Origin: Polyangia bacterium
GTDB lineage: Bacteria > Myxococcota_A > Polyangia > Fen-1088
NCBI GenBank assembly: GCA_035548155.1
Contig: DASZUD010000022.1
Span: forward strand, 23,399 to 87,398
Length of the DNA stretch: 64,000 nt
Direction of reading: 5' to 3'
The notes beneath the pieces were generated by a model. It did not search any database. It saw only the letters and a list, made by a program, of their open reading frames with translations, and had not been told where the DNA came from. Both the position numbers and the translations under genes were made by a program. Below are positions 920 through 62,299 of this stretch, piece after piece; position 1 is the first letter of the stretch, and each line of letters begins with the position of its first letter.

Positions 920-2062
920 TCACGCGCCCTCCAGCTGCTTCTGCGGCTCTTGCGGCGCCGGCCGCGCGGGCGTCACCGCCGGCGCGTGGGTGCGCCTCCG
1001 GGCGAGCCACGCCGTCAGCGGCGCCGCCGCGCCGACGATCCCCTTCGGCAGGAACAGCGTCACGAGCACGAACATGCCGCCCAGCGCGTACAGCCACGCC
1101 GACGGGAACGCCGCGGTCAGCCAGCTCTTCGCGCCGTTGACCAGCCACGCGCCCAGCAGCGCGCCCGTCAACGTGCCGCGCCCGCCGACGGCCACCCAGA
1201 TCGCCATCTCGATCGAGTTCGAGGGCTGCATCTCGCTGGGGTTGATGATGCCGACCTGCGGGACGTACAACGCGCCCGCGAGCGCGCACAGCACGGCCGA
1301 GAGCGTCCACACGAAGAGCTTGTAGTTCGTGGACTCGTAGCCGCAAAAGCGCGTCTTGAGCTCGGCGTCGCGCAGCGCCGTCAGGACGCGCCCGAGCTTG
1401 CTGGTCACGATGAACCGGCACAGCAAGTAGGTGCCCCCCAGCGCGCCCGCCGAGAAGAAGTACAGCATCAGCTTCGTCTGCGGCGCCTGCAGCGGCCAGC
1501 CCACGATGCGCTTGAAGTCCGTGAGGCCGTTGTTGCCGCCGAAGCCCGTGGCGTTCTGGAAGAAGAGCAGCATCGCCGCGTAGGTGAGCGCCTGCGTGAC
1601 GATCGAGAGGTACACGCCCTTGATGCGCGAACGGAACGTGAGCCACCCGAAGACGAGCGCCAGCAGCCCGGGCGCCAGCAGCAGCATCACCACGGCGAAC
1701 CCGAAGTTCTGGAAGCCGTGCCAGTACCAGGGCAGCTCCTTCCAGTCGAGGAACACCATGAAGTCCGGCAACTGGCTGCGGTACACGCCCTCGCCCGCGA
1801 TGGCGCGCATGAGGTACATGCCCATGCCGTAGCCGCCCAGCGCGAAAAAGAGGCCGTGGCCCAGGCTGAGGATGCCGGCGTATCCCCACAAGAGGTCCAT
1901 CGCCAGCGCGGCGATGCCGAAGCAGAGAAACTTGCCGAGCAGCGGGACCAGATAGGCCGGCGCGACGGCCGGCACGACGGCCGCGATGACGACGGCGAAC
2001 GCCGCGGCGCCGAGCCACCCCCGGCGCGAGTGCATCCCGGCGAGGCGCGCGAGCACGCTCAT
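920..2062 (-). CDS. urtC: Urea ABC transporter permease UrtC
   Basis: 380-aa LivM-like membrane protein with several hydrophobic segments. It lies between urtB and urtD and overlaps the urtB stop by 4 bp. Confidence 0.85.
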   Translation of the reverse strand: MSVLARLAGMHSRRGWLGAAAFAVVIAAVVPAVAPAYLVPLLGKFLCFGIAALAMDLLWGYAGILSLGHGLFFALGGYGMGMYLMRAIAGEGVYRSQLPDFMVFLDWKELPWYWHGFQNFGFAVVMLLLAPGLLALVFGWLTFRSRIKGVYLSIVTQALTYAAMLLFFQNATGFGGNNGLTDFKRIVGWPLQAPQTKLMLYFFSAGALGGTYLLCRFIVTSKLGRVLTALRDAELKTRFCGYESTNYKLFVWTLSAVLCALAGALYVPQVGIINPSEMQPSNSIEMAIWVAVGGRGTLTGALLGAWLVNGAKSWLTAAFPSAWLYALGGMFVLVTLFLPKGIVGAAAPLTAWLARRRTHAPAVTPARPAPQEPQKQLEGA

Positions 2063-3708
2063 GCCTCCACCCGGCCCTTGATGGCGAACAGGCCCTGCGG
2101 CCGTCGCTGGATGAAAAGGATGATGAACGTCAGCACGGCGATCTTTCCGAGGACGGCGCCCGCGAGGGGCTCGAGGAACTTGTTGAGGACGCCGAGGCCC
2201 AGCGCCGCCGCGACGGCGCCCGCGAGGCGACCCACGCCGCCCAGGACGACGACCATGAACGAATCGATGACGTACGTCTGGCCGAGCTCAGGCCCGACGT
2301 TCGAGAGCTGCGAGAGCGCGACGCCCCCCAACCCCGCGATGCCCGACCCGAGACCGAACATCCACATGTCGATGCGCTTGGTCGAGATGCCCATGCACGA
2401 CGCCATGGCGCGGTTCTGCGTCACGGCACGCACGTAGAGGCCGAGGCGCGTCTTCTGCAGCAGGAACCACACGCCCGCGGCGACGACGATCACGAAGGCG
2501 ATCACACCGACGCGGCTCCACGGCAGCACCAGACCGTGCGTCAGCTCGATGCCGCCCGCGAGCCAGTCCGGGTTCGCGACGGCGACGTTCTGCGCGCCGA
2601 AGATGAGGCGCACCGTCTGGATGAGTCCGAGGCTGATGCCCCACGTCGCGAGCAACGTCTCGAGCGGACGCCCGTAGAGGTGCTTGATGACGGTGCGCTC
2701 GAGCAGCATGCCCACCGCCATCGTCACCGCGAAGGCGACGGGGATCGCCGCGAGCAAGTACCAGCGGAAGGCACCCGGCAGGTGCGCCTGAAAGAAGCTC
2801 TGCACGGCGTACGTCGAGTACGCGCCCAGCATCAGCATCTCGCCGTGCGCCATGTTGATGACGCCCAGCAGCCCGAAGGTCACGGCGAGGCCCAGCGCCG
2901 CGAACAGCAGCACGCTCGCCAGCGACAGGCCGTGGATCAAGCTGCCGACGACGCTGACGAGGCGCTGCTGCCCGAGGATCCCGTTGACCACGTCCTGGGC
3001 AGCGGAGCGCACGCGCGCGTCGGGTTCTACGAACGCACCCTGCTCCGTCTTCGAGACCATGTGCTGCGCCGCCGCGAGGAACTCGTCGTTGCCGAGCTTC
3101 TTGATGACCGCGAGCGCCGCGATGCGCGCATCCGCGCTGGGGCTCTGCAGGTCGACGCGCGCGACGGCCAACGACAGCGCGTCACGCACCTTCGCGTCCT
3201 TTTCGCGATCGAGCGCCTTGTGCAGGAGGCTCGTCGCCTCTCCGCCGCCCCCCTTCGACAGCTCCTCCGCCGCCGCCAGCCGCTCCGCGGCGCTCGGCGA
3301 GCCGAGCCGCAACTGCGCGAGCACGGGCGCTGCGACGCGCCGGATGTCGTTCGAGACGTCGACCTCTTTCAAAGGTCTCGGCGCGTTGACCACCGCCAAG
3401 GTCAGCGGGTCCTTCGCATCGTGCGTCTTCGATTCCCAGATGTACGGCTTGCCGTCGGCACCGACGCGCAAGCGATCGTCGCAGAGAGCATCCAGCGCCG
3501 GCCACGCGCGCGCATCGTCGAGCGTGCCGAGCTTGCGGATGCTGTCTTCGACCTTCTCTTCGGACGACGCCGCCAACCCGGCGACGGCGTCTTCAAGCGC
3601 CCCGGCGTGAGCGGCCGAACTCGACAACAAGACCAGCAGCACGCTCGCCCCCGAAAGAGCCGCTCGTCTGGCCGTCGTCCTTCCGCTCACGCCGGGTGCC
3701 TCCGTCAC
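2059..3708 (-). CDS. urtB: Urea ABC transporter permease UrtB with a roughly 230-aa N-terminal extension that carries a signal peptide
   Basis: The C-terminal 300 aa form a LivH-like permease (LGLAVTFGLLGVINMAHGEM...). The N-terminus has a signal-like segment followed by a helical, HEAT-like region. Confidence 0.8.
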   Translation of the reverse strand: MTEAPGVSGRTTARRAALSGASVLLVLLSSSAAHAGALEDAVAGLAASSEEKVEDSIRKLGTLDDARAWPALDALCDDRLRVGADGKPYIWESKTHDAKDPLTLAVVNAPRPLKEVDVSNDIRRVAAPVLAQLRLGSPSAAERLAAAEELSKGGGGEATSLLHKALDREKDAKVRDALSLAVARVDLQSPSADARIAALAVIKKLGNDEFLAAAQHMVSKTEQGAFVEPDARVRSAAQDVVNGILGQQRLVSVVGSLIHGLSLASVLLFAALGLAVTFGLLGVINMAHGEMLMLGAYSTYAVQSFFQAHLPGAFRWYLLAAIPVAFAVTMAVGMLLERTVIKHLYGRPLETLLATWGISLGLIQTVRLIFGAQNVAVANPDWLAGGIELTHGLVLPWSRVGVIAFVIVVAAGVWFLLQKTRLGLYVRAVTQNRAMASCMGISTKRIDMWMFGLGSGIAGLGGVALSQLSNVGPELGQTYVIDSFMVVVLGGVGRLAGAVAAALGLGVLNKFLEPLAGAVLGKIAVLTFIILFIQRRPQGLFAIKGRVEA

Positions 3709-3768
3709 TTCAGTGTTCTCCTAGGTCCCATTAAGCTCTGATTACGTTTCGTGCGGGTTTCCAGCGCG

Positions 3769-5151
3769 TTACTTCGCTTCGGCGACGGCCGGCGCGCCGC
3801 CGAACTTGGCCGCCGTGCAGTTGCCGCACGCCCACGGGTACAGCCAGTTCGCGATCTTGCCCTTGTCGTCCGGGATGTACGGGCTCCACGCCTGCGCCTT
3901 GATCGGGCCGTCCGTCTTCCACACGACGTGGAACTGACCGTCCGCCTTGACCTCGCCGATGTAGACCGGCTTGTGCAGGTGGTGGTTCTCGGCGTCCATC
4001 TCGATGTCGAAGCCCGACGGCGACTTGAAGTGCTGGTACCCGATCGCCTGGCGGACGGCGTCGACGTTGGTCGTGTGCGCCTGCTCGACGGCCTGCGCCC
4101 ACATGTGGATGCCGATGTACGTGGCCTCCATCGGATCGTTGGTGACGCGCTTGTCGCCGCCCGGGAGGTTGTTCTTCTTCACGTATGCCATCCACTTGTC
4201 GACGAACGCCTTGTTGGTCGGGTTGTCGATCGACTCGAAGTAGTTCCAGGCCGCCAGCTGGCCCACGAGCGGCTTCGTGTCGATCCCGCGAAGCTCCTCC
4301 TCGCCGACCGAGAACGCGACCACGGGGATGTCCGTCGCCTTGATGCCCTGGTTGCCGAGCTCCTTGTAGAACGGCACGTTCGAGTCGCCGTTGATCGTCG
4401 AGACGACCGCCGTGCGCTTGCCGGCCGCGAACTTCTTGATGTCCGCGACGATCGTCTGGTAGTCGCTGTGGCCGAACGGCGTGTACTTCTCCATGATGTC
4501 GTCGTCGGCCACGCCCTTCGCGTGCAGGAAGTAGCGCAGGATCTTGTTCGTCGTGCGCGGGTAGACGTAGTCGGTGCCGAGGAGCACCCAGCGCTTGGCG
4601 CCGCCGCCCTTCTTGCCCATGAGGTACTCGACGGCCGGGATCGCCTGCTGGTTGGGCGCCGCGCCCGTGTAGAAGACGTTCCACGACGACTCTTCACCCT
4701 CGTACTGCACGGGGTAGAAGAGCAGCCCGTTGAGCTCCTCGTAGACGGGGAGGACCGACTTGCGCGAGACCGACGTCCAGCACCCGAAGGTCACGGCGAC
4801 CTTCTCCTTCTGGATGAGGTCGCGCGCCTTCTCGGCGAACAGCGGCCAGTTCGACGCCGGGTCGACGACCACCGGCTCGAGCTTCCGGCCGAGCACGCCG
4901 CCCGCCTCGTTGATCTCCTCGATCGTCATGAGCGCGACGTCCTTCAGCGACGTCTCGCTGATGGCCATCGTGCCCGACAGCGAGTGGAGGATGCCGACCT
5001 TGATCGGCCCCTTGTCGTCGGCGGGCGCCGACGCCGCCGGCGCGGCAGGCGCGGCCGGGGCCGCGGCCGGAGCGGGCTCCGCCGGCTTCGAGCACGCCGC
5101 GAAGGTCCCGAGCGACCCCGCGAGCAGAACACCACAGAAGGATTTGCGCAT
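3769..5151 (-). CDS. urtA: Urea ABC transporter substrate-binding lipoprotein UrtA
   Basis: Contains the UrtA motif VGILHSLSGTMAISE. It has a lipobox (LGTFAAC) followed by a Pro/Ala-rich linker. A GGGGAGG ribosome-binding site precedes the ATG at 5151, and the stop is TAA at 3769. Confidence 0.85.
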   Translation of the reverse strand: MRKSFCGVLLAGSLGTFAACSKPAEPAPAAAPAAPAAPAASAPADDKGPIKVGILHSLSGTMAISETSLKDVALMTIEEINEAGGVLGRKLEPVVVDPASNWPLFAEKARDLIQKEKVAVTFGCWTSVSRKSVLPVYEELNGLLFYPVQYEGEESSWNVFYTGAAPNQQAIPAVEYLMGKKGGGAKRWVLLGTDYVYPRTTNKILRYFLHAKGVADDDIMEKYTPFGHSDYQTIVADIKKFAAGKRTAVVSTINGDSNVPFYKELGNQGIKATDIPVVAFSVGEEELRGIDTKPLVGQLAAWNYFESIDNPTNKAFVDKWMAYVKKNNLPGGDKRVTNDPMEATYIGIHMWAQAVEQAHTTNVDAVRQAIGYQHFKSPSGFDIEMDAENHHLHKPVYIGEVKADGQFHVVWKTDGPIKAQAWSPYIPDDKGKIANWLYPWACGNCTAAKFGGAPAVAEAK

Positions 5152-5154
5152 GGT

Positions 5155-5190
5155 CCTGAACCTCCCCTCGTTCACCTGAACCTCGTTCAG
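5155..5190. repeat. Direct repeat of CCTGAACCTC spaced 20 bp apart, with GTTCAG inverted elements, just upstream of the urtA start
   Basis: Seen directly: CCTGAACCTCccctcgttcaCCTGAACCTCGTTCAG. It abuts the urtA ribosome-binding site and lies in a locally AT-richer spacer between the porin and urtA. Confidence 0.5.
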
Positions 5191-5241
5191 TTTCCGGGTT
5201 GTAAATTGTTTGTTCATTGGTCGATTCGTCCGTTGTACGGC

Positions 5242-6471
5242 TTAGAAGAAGATCGCCTGCGCGTTGAGCCCGATGGCGTTGGCGGTCACGTCGCTCGCCA
5301 GCTTCGTGTAGCTGTACGTCGCGTTGAGGCGAAGCGCCGGGCCCTTGATGAGGTACGACACCGCGGCGTCGACGTTCCACGGGTTCGTCCCGGTGTTGCC
5401 CTTGATCGTCTCGCCCTGGTAGCGAACCATCGGCTGGATGTTGCCGATGCCGATCACGGGCGTCGCGTACGCCAGCGTCCCGTAATAGAAGTTGCTCACG
5501 CCGTTATCGAGCACGTTGTAGTGGTAGTAGGCGCCGCTGACCGAGAGGTACGAGCCCGGCGCGCCGAGCTTCTTCTCGAAGAGCCCGTCGACGTTGATGT
5601 CGGCGTAGTCCTTGTCGCCGCCCGCCATCGTCGAGCTGCCGTGCTTCTGGAACTGGCCGCCCACGTCGAAGCTCAGGATGTCCTTGTCGCCGAAGTACGT
5701 GCCGTTGCCCCAGAAGCCGGTCTCCTTGTCGAACAGCGAGATGCGCACGCGCCCCGAGTAGAGCGGGCTCGTGGCGATGTTGCCGTTGTCATAGACGCCC
5801 GCGAAGTACGACACCCTGCCGCCGGCGATGTCGCCCCAGACGTTGACGCCGTTGTTGCGCCCGAAGGGTCCTTCGGCAGGAGCGCCCACGGCCGGGGCGA
5901 AGAAGCCCGGGTAGTTCCAGGGGATCATGAAGAACGGGCCCGACGAGTTGTCGCGGTCGACCATGACCAAGAGGTGGCCCGCCCACACGTGAAACTCGTC
6001 CATCGGGTCGTAAGCGATGATCGCGTCCTCGACCTGCGCGGCCGCCGGACCGCCGGAGGTGCCGTAGTTCGCCATGTCGGCGTTGAGGTTCAGCGTGACG
6101 CTGAACTCCTTGGTGAGCTTGCCGCCGGCGTGAAGCTCGACATAGGCGCTGCTCATGTGCCAGTCGTTGAGCTTCTTCTGGTTCTGGCCCTGGAAGAGGC
6201 TGCCGACGCGCACCCAGGCGCCGACGTCGATCGGCGGCAGGACGTCCGGGCGGGTCGCCGGCATCGTCTCGGCGGCCGCCGGCGGCTTGGTCTCGACAGG
6301 CGCGGCCGCGGGCGGAGGAGGCGGCGGCGTCGCGGGAGCCTCGGCCGGCGGAGCGCCAGCCGGCGGCGCCGTGTCCTCTGCGAGCGCCGGAGCGGCCCAC
6401 AGCAACGCCCCCAACATCGCGCCCGTCGCCAGCTTCGTACAACGCGAACCGATAGTGCCGTCTCTCATCAT
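5242..6471 (-). CDS. Outer-membrane porin-like beta-barrel, possibly a urea or short-chain-amide porin
   Basis: Has a signal peptide and a Pro/Ala-rich linker. The body shows alternating beta-strand hydrophobicity and ends in the C-terminal aromatic IFF. It lies immediately upstream of urtA on the same strand. Confidence 0.55.
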   Translation of the reverse strand: MMRDGTIGSRCTKLATGAMLGALLWAAPALAEDTAPPAGAPPAEAPATPPPPPPAAAPVETKPPAAAETMPATRPDVLPPIDVGAWVRVGSLFQGQNQKKLNDWHMSSAYVELHAGGKLTKEFSVTLNLNADMANYGTSGGPAAAQVEDAIIAYDPMDEFHVWAGHLLVMVDRDNSSGPFFMIPWNYPGFFAPAVGAPAEGPFGRNNGVNVWGDIAGGRVSYFAGVYDNGNIATSPLYSGRVRISLFDKETGFWGNGTYFGDKDILSFDVGGQFQKHGSSTMAGGDKDYADINVDGLFEKKLGAPGSYLSVSGAYYHYNVLDNGVSNFYYGTLAYATPVIGIGNIQPMVRYQGETIKGNTGTNPWNVDAAVSYLIKGPALRLNATYSYTKLASDVTANAIGLNAQAIFF

Positions 6472-6732
6472 TTTTCCAGTCTCGTGATTGCCCCAGGCAC
6501 ACCTCGGGCGTACTGCGGTCGGAGCTCGACCGCCGGGCCACCCGGTGCGGGCCGTTCAACCGGCGGCCCGTTGCAATCACGTTCTGGGTCGGGCCGCCGA
6601 AACTTCCGTGTGAGTTGCGACCACCCTATCCGACAGAAGTAAACGGCAGATTTCCGAGTCGACTGACTTGCGTAACATTGGGTCCAAGACGACACGCGTG
6701 TTTCGGACCTCGCCGCGAGCCCCCACGGCTGT

Positions 6733-8544
6733 TCAAGTGAACGACTTGCGGAACGCGCGCCAGCCGCCGAACGAGGAGATCTCTCGCGCGCCGCCCAGCG
6801 CGTGCGGCTCGCACAAGAAACCGCTCACGCGCGCGCCGTCCTCCAGCTCCAGGCTGCCGATGCACAACGGCGCGGGCACGCGCGCCACGAACTCGCCGAA
6901 CGCGCGCGGATGCAGCGCCCACACCTCGACCTCGATCGCGGCGCCGCCCTCCCCCGCGCGCACGAGCCCCGGCTTCGGTGGCGTCGTGTTCGGCAGCGCG
7001 AACAGCTGATATCGCGGCGCCGTTCGGCACGCGCGCACCAGCACCCCGCCGACGCTCGTCAGCTGATGATTGAGCGGCTCGCCCGAGAGGTGGGCGCCCA
7101 CGACGCCGAGCCGCGGCCACGACGCGGGCGCCGAGGTGACCGGCGCGACGTCGGGGTGGCGGGCGGTCGTCGCGCCCAGCTGGTGACCGACGAGCGCGCG
7201 CTCGAAGCGGTCCGCGAAGCCCGCGAGCCGACCGTCCTCGCCCCAGCGCCCGATGAAGGTGATCCCCGCGGGCAGTCCGTCGGCGCGGAAGCCCGCGGGC
7301 ACGGCGACGGCCGACAGTCCCAGCAGGTTGACGAAATTCACGTACGCACCCAGCGTCGCGTTGAGCCGCAACGGGTCGGCCTCGACGGCCGCCACCGTGT
7401 AAATCGTGGGCGCCGTCGGCACGACGAGACAATCCACGCCCGCGAGCGCGCGCATCGCACGCCGGCCGAGCGCCAGGCGCTGCCGCAGGCCGGCGAACAC
7501 CGCGGCGCCGTCGCGCCGCCGCGCGCCCTCCAAGATCTCGCGGATCACGGGCAACAGCGCGCTGGGATCGCGCGCGAGCAGCGCGCCCGCGGCCTCGAGG
7601 CGCTCGGCGACGAAGGGGCCGTCGTACAGCAGCGCCGCCGTGTCCGCGAACGGCTGGAAGTCGATCGACACGGGGTCGCCGCCCAGCGCCCGCAGCCGCT
7701 CGAGCGCCTCGCCGAAGGCCCGCTCGGCCAGCGGGTCGCCGCAGAACCCGAGGTGGGGCGCCGCGGGCACGCCGAAGCGGAAACGCGCGGGCGCCGCCGC
7801 GACGGCGCTCGAGACGTCGTCGGCCTCGGCGCGCGAGTACGGATCCGCCTCGTCGTAGCCGCGCGCGAGCTCGGCGACGGCGGCGCCGTCGGCCGTGGTG
7901 AGCGCGAAGACCGACACGCAGTCGAGCGAGCGGCACGCGGGAACGACGCCGCGCGTGCTGAGCAGGCCGGGGCTCGGCTTGATGCCGGCGATGTTGTTGT
8001 AGCCCGCGGGCACGCGGCCCGACCCCGCCGTGTCCGTCCCCAGCGCGAAGCTGACGAGCCCCGTGGAGACGGCCACCGCCGATCCGGAGCTGGAGCCTCC
8101 GGGGATCATGCGTGCGTCGAAGGGATTCCGGGGAACCCCGTAAGGCGAGCGCGCGCCCACGAGCCCCGTCGCGAACTGGTCCAAATTCGTCTTGCCGACG
8201 GGGATCGCGCCCGCGGCGACGAGCTTCTTCACGACGGCGGCGTCCTCGACCGGCGTGAACGAAAACGCGGGGCACGCGGCCGTCGTCGGCAGGCCCGCGA
8301 CGTCGATGTTGTCCTTCACGGCGAACGGCACCCCGTAGAGGGGGAGCGCCTCGCCCGCCCGGCGGCGTTCCTCGACGGCGCGCGCGCGGGCCAGCAGCGC
8401 TTCGCGGCCGAACACCGAGATCCAGACCCCGTCGTCACCACGCCGAGCGATCCGCGCCAGCACGTCCTCGATCGTGTCCGTGGGCTTGGCGTTCCTGTCC
8501 GCGAGCGATTGCAGATCGAGGCTGGGATCCGTCACGCGTTCCAT
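6733..8544 (-). CDS. Allophanate hydrolase (AtzF-like amidase-signature enzyme with a C-terminal domain)
   Basis: Carries the amidase signature GGSSSGSAVAVSTGLVSFALGTDTAGSGRVPA and has the roughly 600-aa length expected. Its C-terminal 130-aa domain (VVGAHLSGEPLNHQL...) is like the allophanate hydrolase C-domain. I took MERVTDPSLDL as the start. Confidence 0.7.
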   Translation of the reverse strand: MERVTDPSLDLQSLADRNAKPTDTIEDVLARIARRGDDGVWISVFGREALLARARAVEERRRAGEALPLYGVPFAVKDNIDVAGLPTTAACPAFSFTPVEDAAVVKKLVAAGAIPVGKTNLDQFATGLVGARSPYGVPRNPFDARMIPGGSSSGSAVAVSTGLVSFALGTDTAGSGRVPAGYNNIAGIKPSPGLLSTRGVVPACRSLDCVSVFALTTADGAAVAELARGYDEADPYSRAEADDVSSAVAAAPARFRFGVPAAPHLGFCGDPLAERAFGEALERLRALGGDPVSIDFQPFADTAALLYDGPFVAERLEAAGALLARDPSALLPVIREILEGARRRDGAAVFAGLRQRLALGRRAMRALAGVDCLVVPTAPTIYTVAAVEADPLRLNATLGAYVNFVNLLGLSAVAVPAGFRADGLPAGITFIGRWGEDGRLAGFADRFERALVGHQLGATTARHPDVAPVTSAPASWPRLGVVGAHLSGEPLNHQLTSVGGVLVRACRTAPRYQLFALPNTTPPKPGLVRAGEGGAAIEVEVWALHPRAFGEFVARVPAPLCIGSLELEDGARVSGFLCEPHALGGAREISSFGGWRAFRKSFT

Positions 8545-8652
8545 CGTGCTTCGCACAATGCACGAACGCTTGCGCCGCGCGCACCTCCATTCGCTCACCG
8601 ACGGTCAAGTTACGAAGAATGGCGTCGTCGGAAAACTTCGAGAAACACGGCG
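8545..8652. promoter_or_regulatory. Divergent intergenic region of about 108 bp between the allophanate hydrolase and the BMP-type ABC operon; likely a shared regulatory region
   Basis: It is the only non-coding DNA between two divergently oriented units that are functionally linked. I did not verify any consensus promoter. Confidence 0.3.
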
Positions 8653-9771
8653 ATGTCTATAAACGGCCACATGACAAAGACCCGCTCCCTTGTTTCCGCC
8701 CTGTTAACGATGCTCGCCGTCAGCACGACGGCCACCCTGGCCCACGCCGCGCCGGGCATGACGGTCGGCTTCATCTACGTCGGACCGAAGACCGACTACG
8801 GCTACAACCAGGCCCACGCCCAGGGCGCCGCGGCCATCGCGAAGCTGCCCGGCATCAAGGTCCGCGAGGAGGAGATGGTCCCCGAGACGGTCGCCGTCCA
8901 GAAGACCATGGAGAGCATGATCAACCTCGACGGCGCGAAGATCCTCTTCCCGACGTCGTTCGGCTACTTCGATCCGCACATCCTCAAGGAGGCGGCCAAG
9001 AACAAGGACGTCACGTTCTTCCACTGTGGCGGCCTCTACCAGGAGGGCAAGCACCCCACGAACGTCGGCAGCTACTTCGGCTACATCGACGAAGCCGAGT
9101 ACATCTCGGGCATCGTCGCGGGCCTCACGTCGAAGAGCAACAAGCTGGGCTTCATCGCCGCAAAGCCGATCCCCCAGGTGCTCCGCAACATCAACTCGTT
9201 CACGCTGGGCGCGCGCTCCGTGAACCCGAAGGCCACGACGACCGTCATCTTCACGGGTGACTGGTCGATGCCCGTCAAGGAGGCCGAGGCCGCGACGAGC
9301 CTCATCGATCAGGGCGTGGACGTCCTGACGATGCACGTCGATTCGCCGAAGGTCATCGTCGAGACGGCCGAGCGCAAAGGCGTCTTCGTGACGGGCTACC
9401 ACGCGAATCAGGCGGCCCTGGCGCCCAAGGGTTACCTCACGGGCGCCGAGTGGAACTGGGCGAAGGTCTACACCGACTACATCACGATGGTTCAGGCGGG
9501 GAAGCCGTACCCGCACCTGCTGCGCGGCGGCCTCAAAGAGGGCTTCGTGAAGGTCTCGCCGTACGGCAAGGCCGTGTCGGCCGAGGCCAAGAAGAAGGCG
9601 GACGCCGCGAAGGCCAAGTTCATGGCCGGCACGATGGTGGTCTACAAGGGCCCGCTCAAGGACAACACGGGCAAGATCGTGATCCCCGCGGGCCAGGAGC
9701 AGAAGCAGACCGACATCAAGCTCGAGAGCATGGACTACCTCGTCGAGGGCGTCATCGGCAAGACGCACTGA
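8653..9771 (+). CDS. BMP-family (PnrA/Med-like) ABC transporter substrate-binding lipoprotein
   Basis: Begins MSINGHMTKTRSLVSALLTMLAVSTTATLA (signal peptide). The BMP fold is suggested by GFIYVGPKTDYGYNQAH, DVTFFHCGG and FTGDWS motifs. Confidence 0.8.
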   Translation: MSINGHMTKTRSLVSALLTMLAVSTTATLAHAAPGMTVGFIYVGPKTDYGYNQAHAQGAAAIAKLPGIKVREEEMVPETVAVQKTMESMINLDGAKILFPTSFGYFDPHILKEAAKNKDVTFFHCGGLYQEGKHPTNVGSYFGYIDEAEYISGIVAGLTSKSNKLGFIAAKPIPQVLRNINSFTLGARSVNPKATTTVIFTGDWSMPVKEAEAATSLIDQGVDVLTMHVDSPKVIVETAERKGVFVTGYHANQAALAPKGYLTGAEWNWAKVYTDYITMVQAGKPYPHLLRGGLKEGFVKVSPYGKAVSAEAKKKADAAKAKFMAGTMVVYKGPLKDNTGKIVIPAGQEQKQTDIKLESMDYLVEGVIGKTH

Positions 9772-9800
9772 TCCGCTGACATCCACCTGAGGAGGACAAC

Positions 9801-10979
9801 TTGAGCCTCGGCGCAAGCGTCGAATCGACACAGGGCCAGGCGGCCGCTTCGGTGGCCACGGTCTCGCCCGTCGCGCCCGCGACGGCGGTCAAGGTCGCAC
9901 CCATCGCCGAGGTTCACGCGCCGCTCGCGGGGCGCATCGTGGGCGCGCTCGCCGCGCCGACGATCGCCATCCTCGCGGCGCTGCTCCTCTTCGGAGTCTT
10001 CATCGCCTGCACCGGCCGAAACCCCGTGGGCGTCTATTACCAGATGTACCGCGGGTCGTTCGGGACCTGGTTCTCGTTCCAGAACACGCTGCTGCGCGCC
10101 GCGCCCCTGATGCTGACGGCGCTGGCGACGGCGCTGCCGCTGCGCCTCGGGCTGGTCGTGCTCGGCGGAGAAGGCGCGATGGTCATCGGCGGCCTCTCGG
10201 CCGCGGCCGCCGCGCTCGTGGCGCAGCACCACGGCCCCACGGGCATCAAGCTGGCGATGCTGGCGGCGGGCGCCATCGTGGGCGGCCTTTGGATGGCGTC
10301 GGCCGGCGCGCTGCGCGCCTACCGCGGCGTCAACGAGACGATCGGCACGCTGCTGCTCAATTACATCGCGATCGCGCTCCTCAACCACATCGTCGAGGGG
10401 CCGCTGCGCGACCCCGCCAGCCTCAACAAGCCCTCGACGCCGCCCATCGGCGACGACAACATGCTCGGCAACATCCCCGGCCTCGACTGCCATTGGGGCC
10501 TGGTCTTCGGGCTCATCGCGTGCGTGGCGACGTGGGTGCTCATGAACCGCACGACGTTCGGCTTCGCCGCCCGCATGGTGGGCGGCAACGTGCGCGCCGC
10601 CATGCTGAACGGCCTCCCCGTCGGGCGGCTGTTCGTGATCGTCACGGCGATCGGGGGCGCGTGCGCCGGCCTCGCGGGCGCCGTCGAGGTCGCGGCCATC
10701 CACGGCACGGCCAACGCCTCGCTGGTCACGGGCTACGGCTACACGGGCGTGCTCGTGGCGTTCATCGCGCGCGGCAACCCGCTGGCGGTCGTGCCGGTGG
10801 CGTTGCTTCTCGGGGGCATCGGCGCCAGCGGCGGGCTGCTCCAGCGCGTGTTCGAGCTGCCCGACGCCACGGTCAACGTGCTGCAGGGCATCCTCTTCAT
10901 CTGCATCCTCTTCTCCGAGACGTTCAACGGGCGGCAGCCGGGGTTCCTGCGCCGCGCCCGCACGACGGGAGCGACCTGA
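9801..10979 (+). CDS. ABC transporter permease (BMP/nucleoside-type, YufP/RnsC-like)
   Basis: 392-aa polytopic membrane protein. An AGGAGG ribosome-binding site sits 5 nt upstream of the TTG start, and the stop overlaps the next ATG as ATGA. Confidence 0.75.
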   Translation: MSLGASVESTQGQAAASVATVSPVAPATAVKVAPIAEVHAPLAGRIVGALAAPTIAILAALLLFGVFIACTGRNPVGVYYQMYRGSFGTWFSFQNTLLRAAPLMLTALATALPLRLGLVVLGGEGAMVIGGLSAAAAALVAQHHGPTGIKLAMLAAGAIVGGLWMASAGALRAYRGVNETIGTLLLNYIAIALLNHIVEGPLRDPASLNKPSTPPIGDDNMLGNIPGLDCHWGLVFGLIACVATWVLMNRTTFGFAARMVGGNVRAAMLNGLPVGRLFVIVTAIGGACAGLAGAVEVAAIHGTANASLVTGYGYTGVLVAFIARGNPLAVVPVALLLGGIGASGGLLQRVFELPDATVNVLQGILFICILFSETFNGRQPGFLRRARTTGAT

Positions 10980-11899
10980 TGGCCGACGGGGGCGTCTCCA
11001 GCGTCGCGCTCGCCGTGCTCGGCGGCGCCATCCGCATCAGCACGCCGTTCCTCTTCGTGAGCCTCGGCGAGTGCCTCACCGAGAAGAGCGGCCGCGTGAA
11101 CCTCGGCCTCGAGGGCACGCTGGTCATGGGCGCGATGGGGGCGTACGGCGTCTCGTACCTCTCCGGCTCGCCGTGGCTCGGCGTGCTGGCGGCCGGCGCG
11201 CTGGGCGTCGTGCTGGGCGCGCTGCACGCGTGGCTCTGCAGCCGGCCGCGCGTCAACGACGTCGCCGTCGGCATCGCGCTCATGCTCTTCGGAGTGGGGC
11301 TGGCCTTCTTCCTGGGCAAGCCGCTCATCGGGCCCACGGCGCCGCACCTGCCCGCGATCCCGCTCGGCTTCTGGAGCTCTTCGCCGCAGGTGCGGTCGGC
11401 GCTGCAGCTCAACGTGCTGTTCGTCGTGGGCCTGGCCCTGGCGGGCGTGGTGTTGTTCGTCCTCAACCGCACGCGCTGGGGGCTCATTCTCCGCACCGTC
11501 GGCGAGAGCGCCGATTCGGCGCGCGCCATGGGCTACGACGTCAACAGCGTGCGGCTGCGCGCCACGATGGCGGGCGGCTTTCTCGCGGGCGTGGGCGGCT
11601 CGTTCCTCTCGCTCTTCTACCCCGGCAGCTGGAACGAGGGCCTCTCCAGCGGTCAGGGGCTCATGGCCGTCGCGCTGGTGATCTTCGCGCGCTGGGATCC
11701 CATCCGCTGCCTCTGGGCCTCGCTGCTGTTCGGGGGCGCGAGCGCGCTGGGACCCGCGCTGCAGTCGGTGGGGATCACCTCCGGCTACTACCTCTTCAAC
11801 GCCGCGCCCTACGCGCTGACGCTCGCGATCATCATCGCGACCAGCTCGCGCGATCGGGCGCTCATTGGACAACCCGCAGAGCTGCGGACTGCCAGATGA
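10979..11899 (+). CDS. ABC transporter permease (BMP/nucleoside-type, YufQ/RnsD-like)
   Basis: Begins MADGGVSSVALAVLGGAIRISTPFLFVSLGECLTEKSG and is a polytopic membrane protein. Its start is translationally coupled to the preceding permease. Confidence 0.8.
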   Translation: MADGGVSSVALAVLGGAIRISTPFLFVSLGECLTEKSGRVNLGLEGTLVMGAMGAYGVSYLSGSPWLGVLAAGALGVVLGALHAWLCSRPRVNDVAVGIALMLFGVGLAFFLGKPLIGPTAPHLPAIPLGFWSSSPQVRSALQLNVLFVVGLALAGVVLFVLNRTRWGLILRTVGESADSARAMGYDVNSVRLRATMAGGFLAGVGGSFLSLFYPGSWNEGLSSGQGLMAVALVIFARWDPIRCLWASLLFGGASALGPALQSVGITSGYYLFNAAPYALTLAIIIATSSRDRALIGQPAELRTAR

Positions 11900-11918
11900 C
11901 CAGGAGGTGATGCCCCCC

Positions 11919-12625
11919 ATGACGAAGAAGAGCCCCGATCTCCGCTACGTGGCCGCCGAGCCCTACCCCTGGCCGTGGAACGGCGAGCTGCGCCCCAACA
12001 ACACGGCGCTCATCGTCATCGACATGCAGACCGACTTCTGCGGCGAAGGCGGCTACATCGCGCAGCTCGGCTACGACATCTCGCTCACGCGCGAGGCCAT
12101 CGGTCCCATCAAGAGGCTGCTCGAGCACGTGCGCGGCAAGGGCTACCGCATCATCCACACGCGCGAGGGGCACCGCCCCGATCTGTCCGACCTGCCGGCC
12201 AACAAGCGCTGGCGCTCGCGCCAGACCTACGGCAACAAGGACATGGGCATCGGCGACATGGGCCCGAAGGGCCGCATCCTCGTGCGAGGCGAGCCGGGCT
12301 GGGACATCATCCCGGAGCTCGCGCCGGCGCCGGGCGAGATCGTCATCGACAAGCCGGGCAAGGGATCGTTCTGCGCGACGGACCTCGAGCTCATCTTGCG
12401 CCAGCAAGGGATCGCGAACCTCGTCCTGACCGGGATCACCACGGACGTGTGCGTTCACACGACGATGCGCGAGGCGAACGACCGCGGCTTCGAGTGCCTG
12501 ATGCTCGAGGACTGCTGCCGCGCCACGGACCCGGGCAACCACGCGGCCGCCGTGAAGATGATCAAGATGCAGAACGGCGTCTTCGGCGCGGTCTCGCGCT
12601 CGAAGGCGTTCATCGAGGCGATCCT

Positions 12626-12629
<4 letters not shown>
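11919..12629 (+). CDS. Isochorismatase-like cysteine hydrolase (biuret/triuret/guanylurea-hydrolase-like amidohydrolase)
   Basis: Has IVIDMQTDF (Asp35), IVIDKPGKG (Lys145) and TGITTDVCVHTT (Cys178). An AGGAGG ribosome-binding site lies upstream. Other in-frame starts are possible at 11910 and 11865. Confidence 0.8.
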
Positions 12630-14158
<1,529 letters not shown>

Positions 14159-14235
14159 GACCGAAACATCATTGACAATTCCCTGCCCCGCTTGGCCGCG
14201 GACGCGATCCGTGCGATTGCTGCCGCAGGTGTTCG

Positions 14236-14586
14236 ATGAATGAACCTCGCCTCGTCTATCCCGACCTCCTCGCCCGCGCGAAATCGCCTGATTTTCAATG
14301 GACCCCCATGCGGCCAGGCATCGAGATCCACCGCATCTACGAGGATCCTTCGGGGCCCAGCGCGGCGTTGCTTCGTTACGCGCCCGGTGCGACGCTGCCC
14401 CGGCACTCGCACCCCGGCTATGAGCACATCACCGTCCTCGAGGGCTCGCAGGTCGACGAGCGCGGCACCTACGCCGCGCCTTGCTTCATCGTCAACCCTC
14501 CCGGCACCAGCCACGGCGTCACCAGCCCCGACGGGTGCCTGGTCCTCGTCGTCTGGCATCGCCCGGTCGAATTTGAGCAGCGCTGA
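14236..14586 (+). CDS. Cupin-domain protein (ChrR-like cupin)
   Basis: 116 aa with the motif HSHPGYEHITVLEGS and a possible metal-ligand stretch PPGTSHGV. Confidence 0.55.
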   Translation: MNEPRLVYPDLLARAKSPDFQWTPMRPGIEIHRIYEDPSGPSAALLRYAPGATLPRHSHPGYEHITVLEGSQVDERGTYAAPCFIVNPPGTSHGVTSPDGCLVLVVWHRPVEFEQR

Positions 14587-14590
14587 GGCC

Positions 14591-15451
14591 GTGGCCGGCG
14601 ACACGCACGCCGGCTGGCGCGCGCGCCTCGAGCTGGGGTTCGTGCGCGAGGGCGAATCGACGCGGCTCGGCCACCGGGCGCACGTCGGCCCGCTGGCCGT
14701 GCAGCGGCCCTTCTTCCCCGAAGGCCCGGGCGTCTGCCACGTCTACCTCCTGCACCCGCCCGGCGGCATCGTGGGCGGCGATCGTCTGCAGATCGACGTG
14801 CGTGTGGCCGAAGGCGCGCACGCGCTCGTGACGACGCCGGCCGCGACGAAGGTGTACCGCACGGCGGGACCCGGCGCGTCGCAAGAGTGTACGCTCGCCG
14901 TCGCGCCCGGCGCGACGCTGGAGTGGCTGCCGCAGGAGGCGATCGTCTACGACGGCGCGGACGTCTCGCTCACGACGCGCGTCCGCCTCGGCGCTGGCGC
15001 GCGGTTCCTCGGCGTCGACGTCCTGTGCTTCGGGCTGCCCGCGCGCCGCGACGGCCGCTTTCTGCGCGGGCGCTGCAAGCAGTCGGTCGAGCTGTGGCAC
15101 GGCCCGCGTCCCGTCGCGCTCGAGCGCGGCCGCTTCGACGGAGACGGCGCGGTCCACGCCGCCGGCTGGGGCCTCGCGGGCGCGCCCGTGCTCGGCACCT
15201 TCTTCGCCTCGCCCGCCCCCGCGGCGTGCGACGACCTCCTCGACGCCGCCCGCGCCCGCGCCGCCGCGCTGCCGGCCGGCGATCTCGGCGCGGCCACCGT
15301 GCTGGGCCGCGGCGACGCGAGCGCGCTCGTGTGCCGCTACGTCGGGGCCTCCGCCGAGCGCGCCAGCACCTTCTTGCGCGCCGTCTGGGCCGACGCGCGC
15401 GCGGCCCTCCTCGGCCGCGCCCCTGCTTTCCCCCGCATCTGGGCCACCTGA
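14591..15451 (+). CDS. ureD: Urease accessory protein UreD
   Basis: UreD-like sequence ([10 protein letters not shown]...[15 protein letters not shown]) in the correct position before ureA. The GTG start follows the cupin stop by 5 bp. Confidence 0.7.
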
Positions 15452-15488
15452 CCCTAAGAGAACAGAGAGAACAGATGGAGCCGTCGCG

Positions 15489-16132
15489 ATGGAGCTGACC
15501 CCACGAGAGAAGGACAAGCTGCTGCTGTTCACCGCGGCGCTGGTCGCCGAGCGCCGCCGCGCGCGCGGCGGGAAGCTGAACTACCCCGAGGCCGTCGCGC
15601 TGATCTCGGCCGAGATCCTCGAGGGGGCGCGCGACGGCAAGACCGTGGCCGAGCTGATGTCGCTGGGCACGAAGGTGCTGCGCGCCGACGAGGTCATGGA
15701 CGGCGTCGCCGAGCTCATCACCGAGGTGCAGGTCGAGGCCACCTTCCCCGACGGCACGAAGCTGGTGACGGTGCACAACCCGATTCCCCCCACACCGGGC
15801 GAGGTGCCGATCGGGGGCGTCGTGCCGGCCCCCGGCGCCATCACGATCAACGCCCACCGCCCCACCGTCACGCTCGAGGTCTCGAACACGGGCGACCGCC
15901 CCATCCAGGTCGGCTCGCACTACCACTTCGCCGAGACGAACCCGGCGCTGAAGTTCGATCGCGCGAGCGCGCGCGGCTTCCGCCTCGACATCCCGGCCGG
16001 CACGGCCGTTCGCTTCGAGCCGGGCGCGACGCGCACGGTGACGCTGGTCGCCTACGCCGGCGATCGCATCGTGCAGGGCTTCCGCGGCGAGGTGATGGGC
16101 GCCCTCGACGGCGACGAGCCGAGGGGGAATTC

Positions 16133-16136
<4 letters not shown>
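15489..16136 (+). CDS. ureAB: Urease gamma-beta fusion subunit (UreA fused to UreB)
   Basis: Starts [23 protein letters not shown] (UreA) and continues with no stop into the UreB-like stretch [24 protein letters not shown]. Total length is 215 aa. Confidence 0.85.
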
Positions 16137-17839
<1,703 letters not shown>

Positions 17840-17850
17840 CGGGAGAGACG

Positions 17851-18354
17851 ATGTTGCACCTGACCGAGCTCCTTACCGCGGGCACGCCCACGGGAACCGC
17901 GACGCTGACGCTGGACGAGCGGCGCCGCAGCCGGCTGCGCCTCACGCTGGACGACGGCCGCGAGGCGGCGCTGCTGCTGCCGCGCGGCTCGGCGCTGCGC
18001 GAAGGCGATCTGCTGCGCGCCGACGAGGGCGACGTCATCGTCGTGCGCGCGGCCTCCGAGTCGCTGTCCATGGCCAGCACGACCGACGCGCACACGCTCT
18101 TGCGCGGCGCGTACCACCTCGGCAATCGCCACGTCCCCGTGCAGATCGGCGACGGCTGGCTCGCGTACGAGCACGATCACGTGCTGGACGACATGGTGCG
18201 CGGGCTCGGGCTCACCGTCGAGGCGCGGCGCGCGCCCTTCGAGCCGGAAGGCGGGGCGTTCCGGCACGAGGGCAACGGCCATGCGCACTCGCGCGGCGAA
18301 GCGGACCACGACCACCACCATCACCATCACGGGGGCAGTCATCGCCACTCCTGA
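17851..18354 (+). CDS. ureE: Urease accessory protein UreE with a His-rich tail
   Basis: Begins MLHLTELL and ends in the His-rich C-terminus HDHHHHHHGGSHRHS. Confidence 0.8.
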   Translation: MLHLTELLTAGTPTGTATLTLDERRRSRLRLTLDDGREAALLLPRGSALREGDLLRADEGDVIVVRAASESLSMASTTDAHTLLRGAYHLGNRHVPVQIGDGWLAYEHDHVLDDMVRGLGLTVEARRAPFEPEGGAFRHEGNGHAHSRGEADHDHHHHHHGGSHRHS

Positions 18355-19039
18355 GCTACTGACGGCGGGCCCGCTGCTGCGCCTCCTGCACCTGTGCAGC
18401 CCCGCCCTGCCCATCGGCGCGTTCGCGTACTCCCAGGGCCTCGAGCCCGCGACGAGCGCCGGCTGGGTGCGCGACGAGGAGACGGCGCGCGCGTGGATCG
18501 TCGGCATCCTCGAATCGCAGCTCGCGACGCTGGACCTGGCCGTGCTGGCGCGCCTCTATGCGGCGTGGGGCGACGACGACGGGATCGAAGCGCCCACCGT
18601 CGCCGAGTGGAGCGCCTTCCTGCTCGCGTCGCGCCCCTCCGCCGAGCTGCAAGCCGAGGAGCGTCACCTGGGCGGCGCGCTGGCGCGCCTCGTCGCGGGG
18701 CTCGGGATCCCCGAAGCCTCCTCGTGGACGATGCGCGACGAGACGACGTACGCCGCCGTCTTCGCGCTCGCGGCGCGACGATGGGACGTCCCGCTGCGCG
18801 CGGCCGCCCAGGGGTTCGCGTTCGCGTGGGCCGAGGCGCAGGTCAGCGCCGCCGTGCGCGTCATCCCGCTGGGACAAAGCGCGGGCCAGCGCATACTGGC
18901 GGCGGCGGCGGCCGTCATCCCGGCCGCCGTCGAGCGCGCCCTCTCGCTGCCCGCCGACGAGCTCGGCGCCAGCTCCCCTCGCCTCGCCGTCGCGAGCGCC
19001 GCGCACGAGCACCAGTACTCGCGACTCTTCCGCTCCTGA
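18281..19039 (+). CDS. ureF: Urease accessory protein UreF (start uncertain)
   Basis: Contains LLRLLHLCSPALPIGAFAYSQGLE. The only in-frame ATG, at 18281, overlaps ureE by 74 nt, so the real start may be a non-canonical codon further downstream. Confidence 0.65.
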   Translation: MRTRAAKRTTTTTITITGAVIATPELLTAGPLLRLLHLCSPALPIGAFAYSQGLEPATSAGWVRDEETARAWIVGILESQLATLDLAVLARLYAAWGDDDGIEAPTVAEWSAFLLASRPSAELQAEERHLGGALARLVAGLGIPEASSWTMRDETTYAAVFALAARRWDVPLRAAAQGFAFAWAEAQVSAAVRVIPLGQSAGQRILAAAAAVIPAAVERALSLPADELGASSPRLAVASAAHEHQYSRLFRS

Positions 19040-19066
19040 TCGCCACCCCACGAGGAGACCTCGAAC

Positions 19067-19702
19067 ATGGACATCGCCAAGTCACACCGCACCGCGCGCG
19101 CCCCGCTCCGCCTCGGCGTCGCGGGCCCCGTCGGCTCGGGCAAGACGGCCCTCGTCGACGCGCTCTGCAAGCGCCTGCGCGACCAGTTCAACATCGCCGT
19201 CGTGACGAACGACATCTACACGAAGGAGGACGCGCAGTTCCTCATGCGCTCCGGCGCCCTGTCCGTCGACCGCATCGTGGGCGTCGAGACCGGCGGCTGC
19301 CCCCACACCGCCATCCGCGAGGACGCCTCGATCAACCTCGCGGCCGTCGACGAGATGAACGCGCGCCACCCGGGCCTCGACATGGTCATCATCGAGAGCG
19401 GCGGCGACAACCTGGCCGCCACGTTCAGCCCGGAGCTGGCCGATCTGTGCATTTACGTGATCGACGTCGCGGGCGGCGACAAGATCCCGCGCAAAGGCGG
19501 CCCGGGCATCACGAAGTCCGATCTCCTGGTCATCAACAAGACCGATCTCGCGCCGCACGTGGGCGCGTCGCTCGAGGTCATGGATCGCGACGCCCGCAAG
19601 CAGCGCGGGGAGCGGCCGTTCGTGTTCACCAGCCTCAAGGCCAAGGAAGGCGTCGAGCCCGTGGCCCAGTTCGTGATCCGCGCGGGCCTGCTGGGCGCGT
19701 AG
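19067..19702 (+). CDS. ureG: Urease accessory GTPase UreG
   Basis: Has the P-loop GPVGSGKT plus ETGGCPH and the UreG G4 motif NKTD. Confidence 0.9.
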
Positions 19703-19711
19703 CGGCGCGGC

Positions 19712-20431
19712 TCAGGAATGGTGCCGGCCGCGCGCGGGGTAACCCACCGACTGCGCGAACAGCACCCGCTGAGTGGGGCGCAGCCCCATGGCCCGAGACA
19801 GCGCGTTGCGGTCGCAGTTGTGGAACCAGCACGCGAGCCCCTGCGCCGCCGCGAAGAGGTACACGTTGGCGGCGATGAGGCCCGTGTCGACGAAGTAGTA
19901 CGACTTCTGCACCTCCGGATCGTGCAAGCCCGGTTCTTCGTACCCCGCCGTGTGCTCCAGCTTCTCCAGATCCGCCACGAAGATCAGCTGAACGGGCGCG
20001 ATGGCCGACGCCTCGGGTTGGCGCGGCCCCAGCGTGAAGGCCCGCACGTCGTCGGGCGAGATCGGCAGCAGCTCGTGCGCCACGGGGTTGAACAGGTACG
20101 CGCCGCCGGCGAGCGCGACGTACATCTCGATCTCTTGCGAGTTGCTGGCCGACGCCGCCGTGAGCCCGAAGGCGCCGAACGGGCCGTGTCGCCGGTTCAC
20201 GCCGCACGCGGCGAACAGGAGGTCGGAGAGGACCTGCGGCTCGAGCGCGCGCTCGCTGATCTCGCGCACCGTTCGTCGCGCCTTGAGCGCCTGTTCGAGC
20301 GACGTCTCCGAATCCAGCTTCGGCTTGGGAAGCTTCAGGATCGCCGCCTCGTTCGCGGCACGCGCTTCGGTCATCTTCTTCGTGTCCCGAGTCACCTTCC
20401 TCGCCGGCGTGTGGTGCTTCTCGTGGAGCAT
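19712..20431 (-). CDS. Nitroreductase-family (SagB-type) oxidoreductase
   Basis: The stretch LKARRTVREISERALEPQVLSDLLFAACGV has the nitroreductase fold signature. It converges on the ureG stop. Confidence 0.55.
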   Translation of the reverse strand: MLHEKHHTPARKVTRDTKKMTEARAANEAAILKLPKPKLDSETSLEQALKARRTVREISERALEPQVLSDLLFAACGVNRRHGPFGAFGLTAASASNSQEIEMYVALAGGAYLFNPVAHELLPISPDDVRAFTLGPRQPEASAIAPVQLIFVADLEKLEHTAGYEEPGLHDPEVQKSYYFVDTGLIAANVYLFAAAQGLACWFHNCDRNALSRAMGLRPTQRVLFAQSVGYPARGRHHS

Positions 20432-61633: not shown

Positions 61634-62299
61634 ATGCGCGTCGATCGTTCGAAAGATGCGTTGCTGATCGTCGACGTCCAGCGTGATTTCTTGCCGGGCG
61701 GCGCGCTGGCCGTCGCCGAGGGCGATCAGATCCTGCGCGGGCTCGCGAAGGTCACGGGGCTCTTCGAGACGGTGGTGGCCACGCAAGACTTTCACCCGCG
61801 CGGGCACGTGTCGTTCGCGTCGTCGCACCCCGGGCGCGGCCCGCTCGAGACCGTCCCCGTCCATGGCGTCCCGCAGGAGCTCTGGCCCGACCACTGCGTC
61901 GCGGGGACGCCGGGCGCCGCGCTGGCGCCCGAGGTGCCCGAAGACGCGCTGACGCTGATCCTGCGCAAGGGGACGCGCCGGCACATCGATTCGTACAGCG
62001 CCTTCCGCGAACAGGTGGGCCCCGACGGCCGGCGAACACCCACGGGCCTCGCGGCTTGGCTGCGCGCGCGCGGCGTCTCGCGCGTCTTCGTCGTCGGCCT
62101 GGCCCGCAACTACTGCGTGCGCGCGACGGCCGTCGATGCCGTCAACGAGGGCTTCGAGACCGTCGTCGTCGAGGACCTGACCAAACCCGTGGAGCCCCGG
62201 CGGCGCGCCGAGACCGACGAGGCCTGGCGCGAGGCGGGCGTGCGCGTCGTCTGCGCCCGCGACCTGTCCGGCGACGCCCGAGCGAAGAGCGCACGCTGA
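61634..62299 (+). CDS. pncA: Nicotinamidase/pyrazinamidase
   Basis: LLIVDVQRDF, QDFHP, DSYSAF and the NYCV Cys motif. An isochorismatase-fold enzyme. Confidence 0.8.
   Translation: MRVDRSKDALLIVDVQRDFLPGGALAVAEGDQILRGLAKVTGLFETVVATQDFHPRGHVSFASSHPGRGPLETVPVHGVPQELWPDHCVAGTPGAALAPEVPEDALTLILRKGTRRHIDSYSAFREQVGPDGRRTPTGLAAWLRARGVSRVFVVGLARNYCVRATAVDAVNEGFETVVVEDLTKPVEPRRRAETDEAWREAGVRVVCARDLSGDARAKSAR

Follow-up and report, generated by a model that had tools for sequence, protein, structure and literature searches.

The gene at 11919–12629 (+) in the 64 kb stretch of DNA analysed here (the window) encodes a predicted biuret amidohydrolase, and we refer to it as biuH. Translation gave a single unbroken ORF of 236 aa followed by a stop codon, and an independent gene call on the contig returned the identical product. 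A ribosome-binding site (GGAGG) lies 8–12 nt 5' of the ATG, and GC content at the third codon position of the biuH frame is 0.93–0.97, in a window with an overall GC content of 71%. A Pfam scan of the product found one Isochorismatase domain (PF00857, E=1.8e-45). Together with the match to the BiuH of Rhizobium leguminosarum (PDB 6AZO, E=1.8e-113), this excludes a chance match by far.

We mapped the neighbouring genes from codon-position GC, family scans and the existing gene annotation. Upstream of biuH on the same strand is a gene for a BMP/PnrA-family ABC substrate-binding protein of 372 aa with a signal peptide (8653–9771, alternative start 8671; Pfam Bmp, E=1.1e-39), followed by the genes for two ABC transporter permeases. 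Permease 1 (9801–10979, +) was assigned by family scan, gene call and synteny; permease 2 (10979–11899, +) starts in overlap with the permease 1 stop codon and ends 19 nt before biuH. Downstream, a transporter ATPase with two ATP-binding domains (12626–14158, +) begins at a GTG in a 4-nt overlap (GTGA) with the biuH stop codon, an arrangement that suggests translational coupling. The overlap of the ATPase gene with biuH, and that of the two permease genes, show that these genes form one tight operon. The last gene of the cassette is conserved and encodes a small Cupin_7 (ChrR-like cupin) protein (14236–14586, +, with a start at 14308 in the other gene call; Pfam Cupin_7, E=1.8e-18).

The operon is adjoined by a divergent gene for an AtzF-type allophanate hydrolase (6733–8598, −), which scored above the equivalog cut-offs of two family models (TIGR02713, 765.5 bits versus 511; NF006043, 804 bits versus 487) and provides biuH with a pathway context. 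Beyond it on the same strand, family scans identified a porin-like gene (5242–6471) and the urea ABC transporter genes urtC, urtB and urtA (920–5217). Directly downstream of the cassette is a urease cluster (14591–19702, +) comprising ureD, a fused ureAB gene for the gamma and beta subunits (15489–16136), ureC, ureE, ureF and ureG; urease is not needed for biuret breakdown. The region from 920 to 19702 is thus a contiguous nitrogen-scavenging island, made up of urtCBA, the porin-like gene, the allophanate hydrolase gene, the biuret cassette and the full urease cluster. The next ORF after ureG (19712–20431, −), on the other strand, belongs to the nitroreductase family and had no NCBIfam matches.

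To place the biuH product within its superfamily, we scored it against NF050097, the NCBIfam curated equivalog model for BiuH, which has a cut-off of 370 bits. The window ORF scored 396.9 bits. The R. leguminosarum-type BiuH and the BiuH of Rhodococcus sp. Mel reached 427.7 and 424.3 bits, respectively, while a Rhizobium TrtA-like paralogue reached 244.5 bits and the crystallized Herbaspirillum TrtA 257.1 bits. As the BiuH references score above 370 bits and the TrtA proteins below, the cut-off distinguishes BiuH from the sister family nearest to it, with the window ORF on the BiuH side.

Searches of the PDB gave a consistent picture. The best sequence matches were the R. leguminosarum BiuH structures 6AZO and 6AZQ (E=1.8e-113; 72.2% identity), followed by Rhodococcus BiuH 6XJM (1.2e-91), TrtA 6XIX (9e-65), RutB (4e-26) and carbamoylsarcosine amidase 1NBA (4e-9). 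An AlphaFold model of the ORF had moderate confidence (mean pLDDT 73.7, pTM 0.77), lowest in the loops at residues 41–44, 85–88 and 98–103, and for this reason the model was used for fold ranking only. Foldseek placed BiuH 6AZO/6AZS at the top, with TM-scores of 0.82–0.85, and the ranking agreed with the sequence order. The reading of the locus made from sequence only (the sequence-only reading) had proposed a BiuH-type cysteine hydrolase, a proposal borne out by the family model score, the top sequence and fold matches and the alignment of the catalytic triad.

That triad was predicted to be Asp35, Lys145 and Cys178, and translation and motif positions confirmed it: the motifs IVIDMQTDF, IVIDKPGKG and TGITTDVCVHTT begin at residues 32, 141 and 171 of the ORF, which puts the catalytic residues at D35, K145 and C178. 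The triad of R. leguminosarum BiuH is D36/K142/C175 (PMC5806882), just as the sequence-only reading had given it. A four-way alignment of the window ORF, R. leguminosarum BiuH, Rhodococcus BiuH and TrtA, from which all residue equivalences were taken, put the two triads in the same columns. Some care with numbering is needed here, because K145 of the ORF is the catalytic lysine (K142 in BiuH), whereas the substrate-binding K145 of BiuH corresponds to K148 of the ORF. The catalytic cysteine, on whose conservation the sequence-only reading had made its assignment depend, is present in all 80 orthologues, as are the other two members of the triad.

The substrate pocket is conserved to the same degree. 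In R. leguminosarum BiuH, biuret is bound by K145, Q215 of the partner subunit, the I170/T171 backbone, F41, Y47 and V174, and Q215 and V218 gate the substrate tunnel (PMC5806882). All of the corresponding residues are identical in the window ORF, namely the contacts K148, Q218, I173–T174, F40, Y46 and V177 and the gate Q218/V221. The full published set of contact and conserved residues was likewise matched (D36, Q38, F41, Y47, K142, K145, F148, T151, G169, I170, T171, V174, C175, T179, Q215 and V218 in R. leguminosarum numbering).

Six positions separate TrtA from the BiuH consensus, and correspond to Y47, Y53, S147, D173, T200 and V218 of R. leguminosarum BiuH (PMC7948467). Alignment to BiuH and TrtA, which the sequence-only reading had put forward as the way to distinguish biuret from triuret specificity, showed the BiuH residue at six of six positions in the window ORF: Y46 (Y in the BiuH consensus, F35 in TrtA), Y52 (Y, N41), S150 (S, A134), D176 (D, E160), T203 (T, Y187) and V221 (V, I205). 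We assessed the discriminating power of these positions in a validation set from 80 genomes, consisting of 80 orthologues (70–79% identity) and 49 TrtA-like paralogues (43–55%). The orthologues carried Y/Y/S/D/T/V, with one exception at T, and the paralogues F/N/A(M)/E/Y/I, a near-perfect separation. In a neighbour-joining tree, which is distance-based only and without bootstrap, the smallest clade containing the window ORF and both characterized BiuH proteins had 83 leaves, none of them TrtA or a TrtA-like paralogue.

The window ORF is therefore equivalent to BiuH in sequence, in fold and at the residue level, and is set in orthologous synteny. We conclude that the product of 11919–12629 is very probably a BiuH orthologue (EC 3.5.1.84), a metal-free cysteine hydrolase of the isochorismatase-like family whose activity is predicted. 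It is a routine member of the family: the curated equivalog model names BiuH directly, and the gene context has been described previously.

The closest characterized counterpart is BiuH of R. leguminosarum bv. viciae 3841 (PDB 6AZO/6AZQ/6AZS; PMC5806882), which shares the triad, substrate contacts and gating residues with the window enzyme at 72% identity. Outside these sites, S177 and M51 of the R. leguminosarum enzyme are replaced by H180 and L50 in the window enzyme, whose loop after W98-R-S also carries an insertion of four residues (RSRQTYGNKDMGIGD in the window, RSQRIGAGIGD in R. leguminosarum). The insertion (the T-Y-G-N-K-D-M region, approximately residues 102–109, window 12222–12245) falls in a segment of low pLDDT. 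A few of the related genome loci also have it, and so does the consensus of the nearest homologues in the database, several of them from Polyangia/Myxococcales MAGs. The insertion is lineage-specific and is the sole peculiarity of the window BiuH; the same loop varies in length among R. leguminosarum BiuH, Rhodococcus BiuH and TrtA.

At the level of the operon, the window and R. leguminosarum share a backbone of BMP binding protein, two permeases, BiuH, ATPase and cupin. In an annotated plasmid locus of R. leguminosarum, the genes run GntR, binding protein, permease, permease, formamidase, BiuH, AtzD (cyanuric acid hydrolase), ATPase, TrtA-like protein and cupin. In contrast, the window operon is without the formamidase, AtzD, TrtA and GntR genes found in Rhizobium, and no homologue of any of these four, or of an HpxZ-like protein, was found anywhere in the 64 kb window. 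The gene content of the window thus corresponds to the R. leguminosarum-type cassette minus AtzD, TrtA and formamidase, which identifies it as an orthologous cassette in minimal form. The flanks also differ from those in Rhizobium, being composed of urease and urea-transporter genes and the divergent allophanate hydrolase gene. A megablast search of 13 kb around biuH against plasmids gave partial matches only, at 72–77% identity, and no near-identical record.

A parallel for the flanks is found in ammonia-oxidizing bacteria, in which biuH occurs with atzF, a BMP-type ABC transporter (bmpA-nupABC) and a complete urease cassette nearby, as in the window (PMC12625717). The hosts differ, being nitrifiers in that study and a Polyangia-like MAG here, and the ammonia-oxidizer contigs additionally carry trtA and trtB (PMC12625717), both of which are lacking in the window. 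Urease genes and urt/porin genes also flank the Polyangia-type loci L001, L003, L004, L028 and L048 among the related loci that we compared.

These related loci came from 80 genomes of Alpha-, Beta- and Gammaproteobacteria, Polyangia, Phycisphaerales, Rokubacteria and Actinomycetota. The transporter genes were the most constant companions of biuH: the binding protein beside it and permease 1 were each present in 68 of the 80 loci, permease 2 in 74 and the ATPase after biuH in 71. Other genes were more sporadic, with a cupin in 30 of 80 (and in the R. leguminosarum operon), an allophanate hydrolase within 8 kb in 23, a formamidase in 22, an HpxZ/AtzH-like NTF2 protein in 13 and AtzD in five. 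The position of biuH inside a BMP/PnrA-family importer operon, between permease 2 and the ATPase, is kept in about 70 of the 80 genomes and across several phyla.

Sequence identity alone does not fix specificity in the BiuH family. The BiuH of Rhodococcus sp. Mel, encoded together with AtzD, shares 67% identity with its R. leguminosarum counterpart but works more slowly and on both biuret and triuret (PMC7948467). The Rhodococcus enzyme hydrolysed triuret at 0.3 U/mg and biuret at 1.7 U/mg (ratio ~0.2), compared with 0.0044 s-1 at 1 mM triuret and a biuret kcat of 4.0 s-1 (ratio ~1e-3) for the R. leguminosarum enzyme (PMC7948467). The window BiuH is 61.6% identical to that of Rhodococcus (PDB 6XJM), and both have the BiuH-type discriminating residues. 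It is conceivable, but in our judgement improbable, that the window enzyme is a generalist of the Rhodococcus kind that hydrolyses biuret and triuret at modest rates and substitutes for an absent TrtA. The gene content is in keeping with this idea, in that the 64 kb window has no TrtA-like paralogue, compared with 49–50 of the 80 related loci, and single-biuH genomes may select for generalists (PMC7948467); trtA could nevertheless lie elsewhere in the genome, beyond the window. The residues point the other way. H180, which follows the catalytic Cys-Val and is common to the window and Rhodococcus enzymes, is the majority state in the BiuH clade (77 of 80 orthologues) and thus no marker of a generalist. 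Moreover, where Rhodococcus BiuH resembles TrtA, with A and Y in GAFYATD, the window enzyme reads GSFCATD and has the R. leguminosarum residues S150 and C152.

We also considered a broader proposal, in which the Polyangia-like lineage has reduced its biuret cassette to importer, BiuH and cupin and fused it into the urea-scavenging island, with the loop-inserted BiuH acting as a wider ureide amidase (on biuret and triuret or related carbamoyl compounds) and the cupin carrying out a further pathway step. To this combination of claims we assign a low probability.

Assignment of the ORF as a triuret hydrolase, a TrtA that makes carboxybiuret, was rejected at the sequence level. The window BiuH has the fold and triad of Herbaspirillum sp. 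BH-1 TrtA (PDB 6XIX/6XJE), at 48.6% identity to 6XIX, and the substrate-coordinating Gln is kept. However, the two proteins differ at all six of the specificity-linked second-shell residues, the window ORF lies outside the TrtA clade, and its NF050097 score is ~140–150 bits above those of genuine TrtAs, so that this identity is extremely unlikely. TrtA also lacks four N-terminal residues of the window BiuH (W20-N-G-E) and has a shorter loop.

Another isochorismatase-like amidase, whether RutB (ureidoacrylate amidohydrolase), N-carbamoylsarcosine amidase (CSHase), guanylurea hydrolase or nicotinamidase, has next to no likelihood: the Asp-Lys-Cys triad and fold are common across the superfamily, and guanylurea hydrolases can stand fairly close to BiuH in sequence (they are reported as ≤65% identical to other family members; PMC9800807), but the ORF scored only 124.5 bits against the RutB model TIGR03614 (cut-off 377.95) and 45.3 bits against the PncA model NF008623 (cut-off 174), matched CSHase 1NBA at E=4e-9 only, and has no rut genes nearby, its neighbours being the allophanate hydrolase, the BiuH-type transporter backbone and urease. 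The RutB or CSHase identity that the sequence-only reading had named as grounds for abandoning BiuH was accordingly not found. As to guanylurea hydrolases (guuH), a published phylogeny placed the biuH sequences that it covered apart from both guuH and trtA (PMC12625717). The window also holds a separate PncA-like gene, as had been claimed, at 61634–62299 (+); this second isochorismatase-family ORF scored 165.7 bits, just under the nicotinamidase/pyrazinamidase cut-off of 174, and is ~23% identical to the window BiuH. The argument that a length of 236 aa marks a BiuH/TrtA-type enzyme rather than PncA did not hold, as the PncA-like ORF has 221 aa, R. leguminosarum BiuH 233 aa and TrtA 222–227 aa.

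For the BiuH orthologue that we favour, homology with the R. leguminosarum enzyme allows a catalytic mechanism to be proposed, in which C178 would be the nucleophile, D35 the general base/acid, and K145 would tune both. Biuret would be gripped by D35, K148, the I173–T174 backbone and Q218' of the neighbouring subunit, and packed by F40, Y46 and V177. With the aid of D35 and K145, C178 is predicted to lose its proton and attack a terminal carbonyl of biuret; the oxyanion would be bound by the main-chain NH groups of T174 and C178. Release of ammonia would leave a thioester, and hydrolysis of the thioester by water would yield allophanate.

From the surrounding genes we infer how this activity might be embedded in metabolism. 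The BMP-type ABC system is the likely importer feeding BiuH, with the BMP-family protein as the putative biuret-binding component, and the allophanate formed by BiuH would go on to the divergent allophanate hydrolase for conversion to ammonia and CO2. The locus as a whole may thereby serve a Polyangia-like bacterium in the use of biuret as a nitrogen source. Biuret is an impurity of urea fertilizer and a breakdown product of cyanuric acid and, besides urea, is probably a nitrogen source open to this uncultured Polyangia-like soil bacterium. The finding extends an enzyme family of known wide distribution by one lineage, and has little meaning beyond annotation.

The substrate of the importer deserves separate comment. 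Transporters of the BMP type are usually annotated as nucleoside or vitamin B6 importers, and the published descriptions of biuH loci consulted here give the transporter no annotation other than nucleoside importer and report no test of its substrate. Because biuH is embedded in a conserved importer operon, we consider biuret or related ureides more likely substrates at this locus than nucleosides.

Finally, we examined the cupin. Considered as a candidate for the carboxybiuret decarboxylase TrtB, the protein matched ChrR-type cupin domains only, and it was left without an assignment. None of the 80 loci combined a cupin with an HpxZ/AtzH-like NTF2 protein, compared with about five co-occurrences expected by chance if the kinship of the loci is ignored. 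In its 13 loci the NTF2 protein takes the position of the cupin (for example, L034:10934–11311 for the NTF2 protein and L081:12943–13296 for the cupin), and it is possible that the two proteins are functional alternatives. In Herbaspirillum, trtA is followed at the equivalent position by a gene for an NTF2-like protein that scores as HpxZ.
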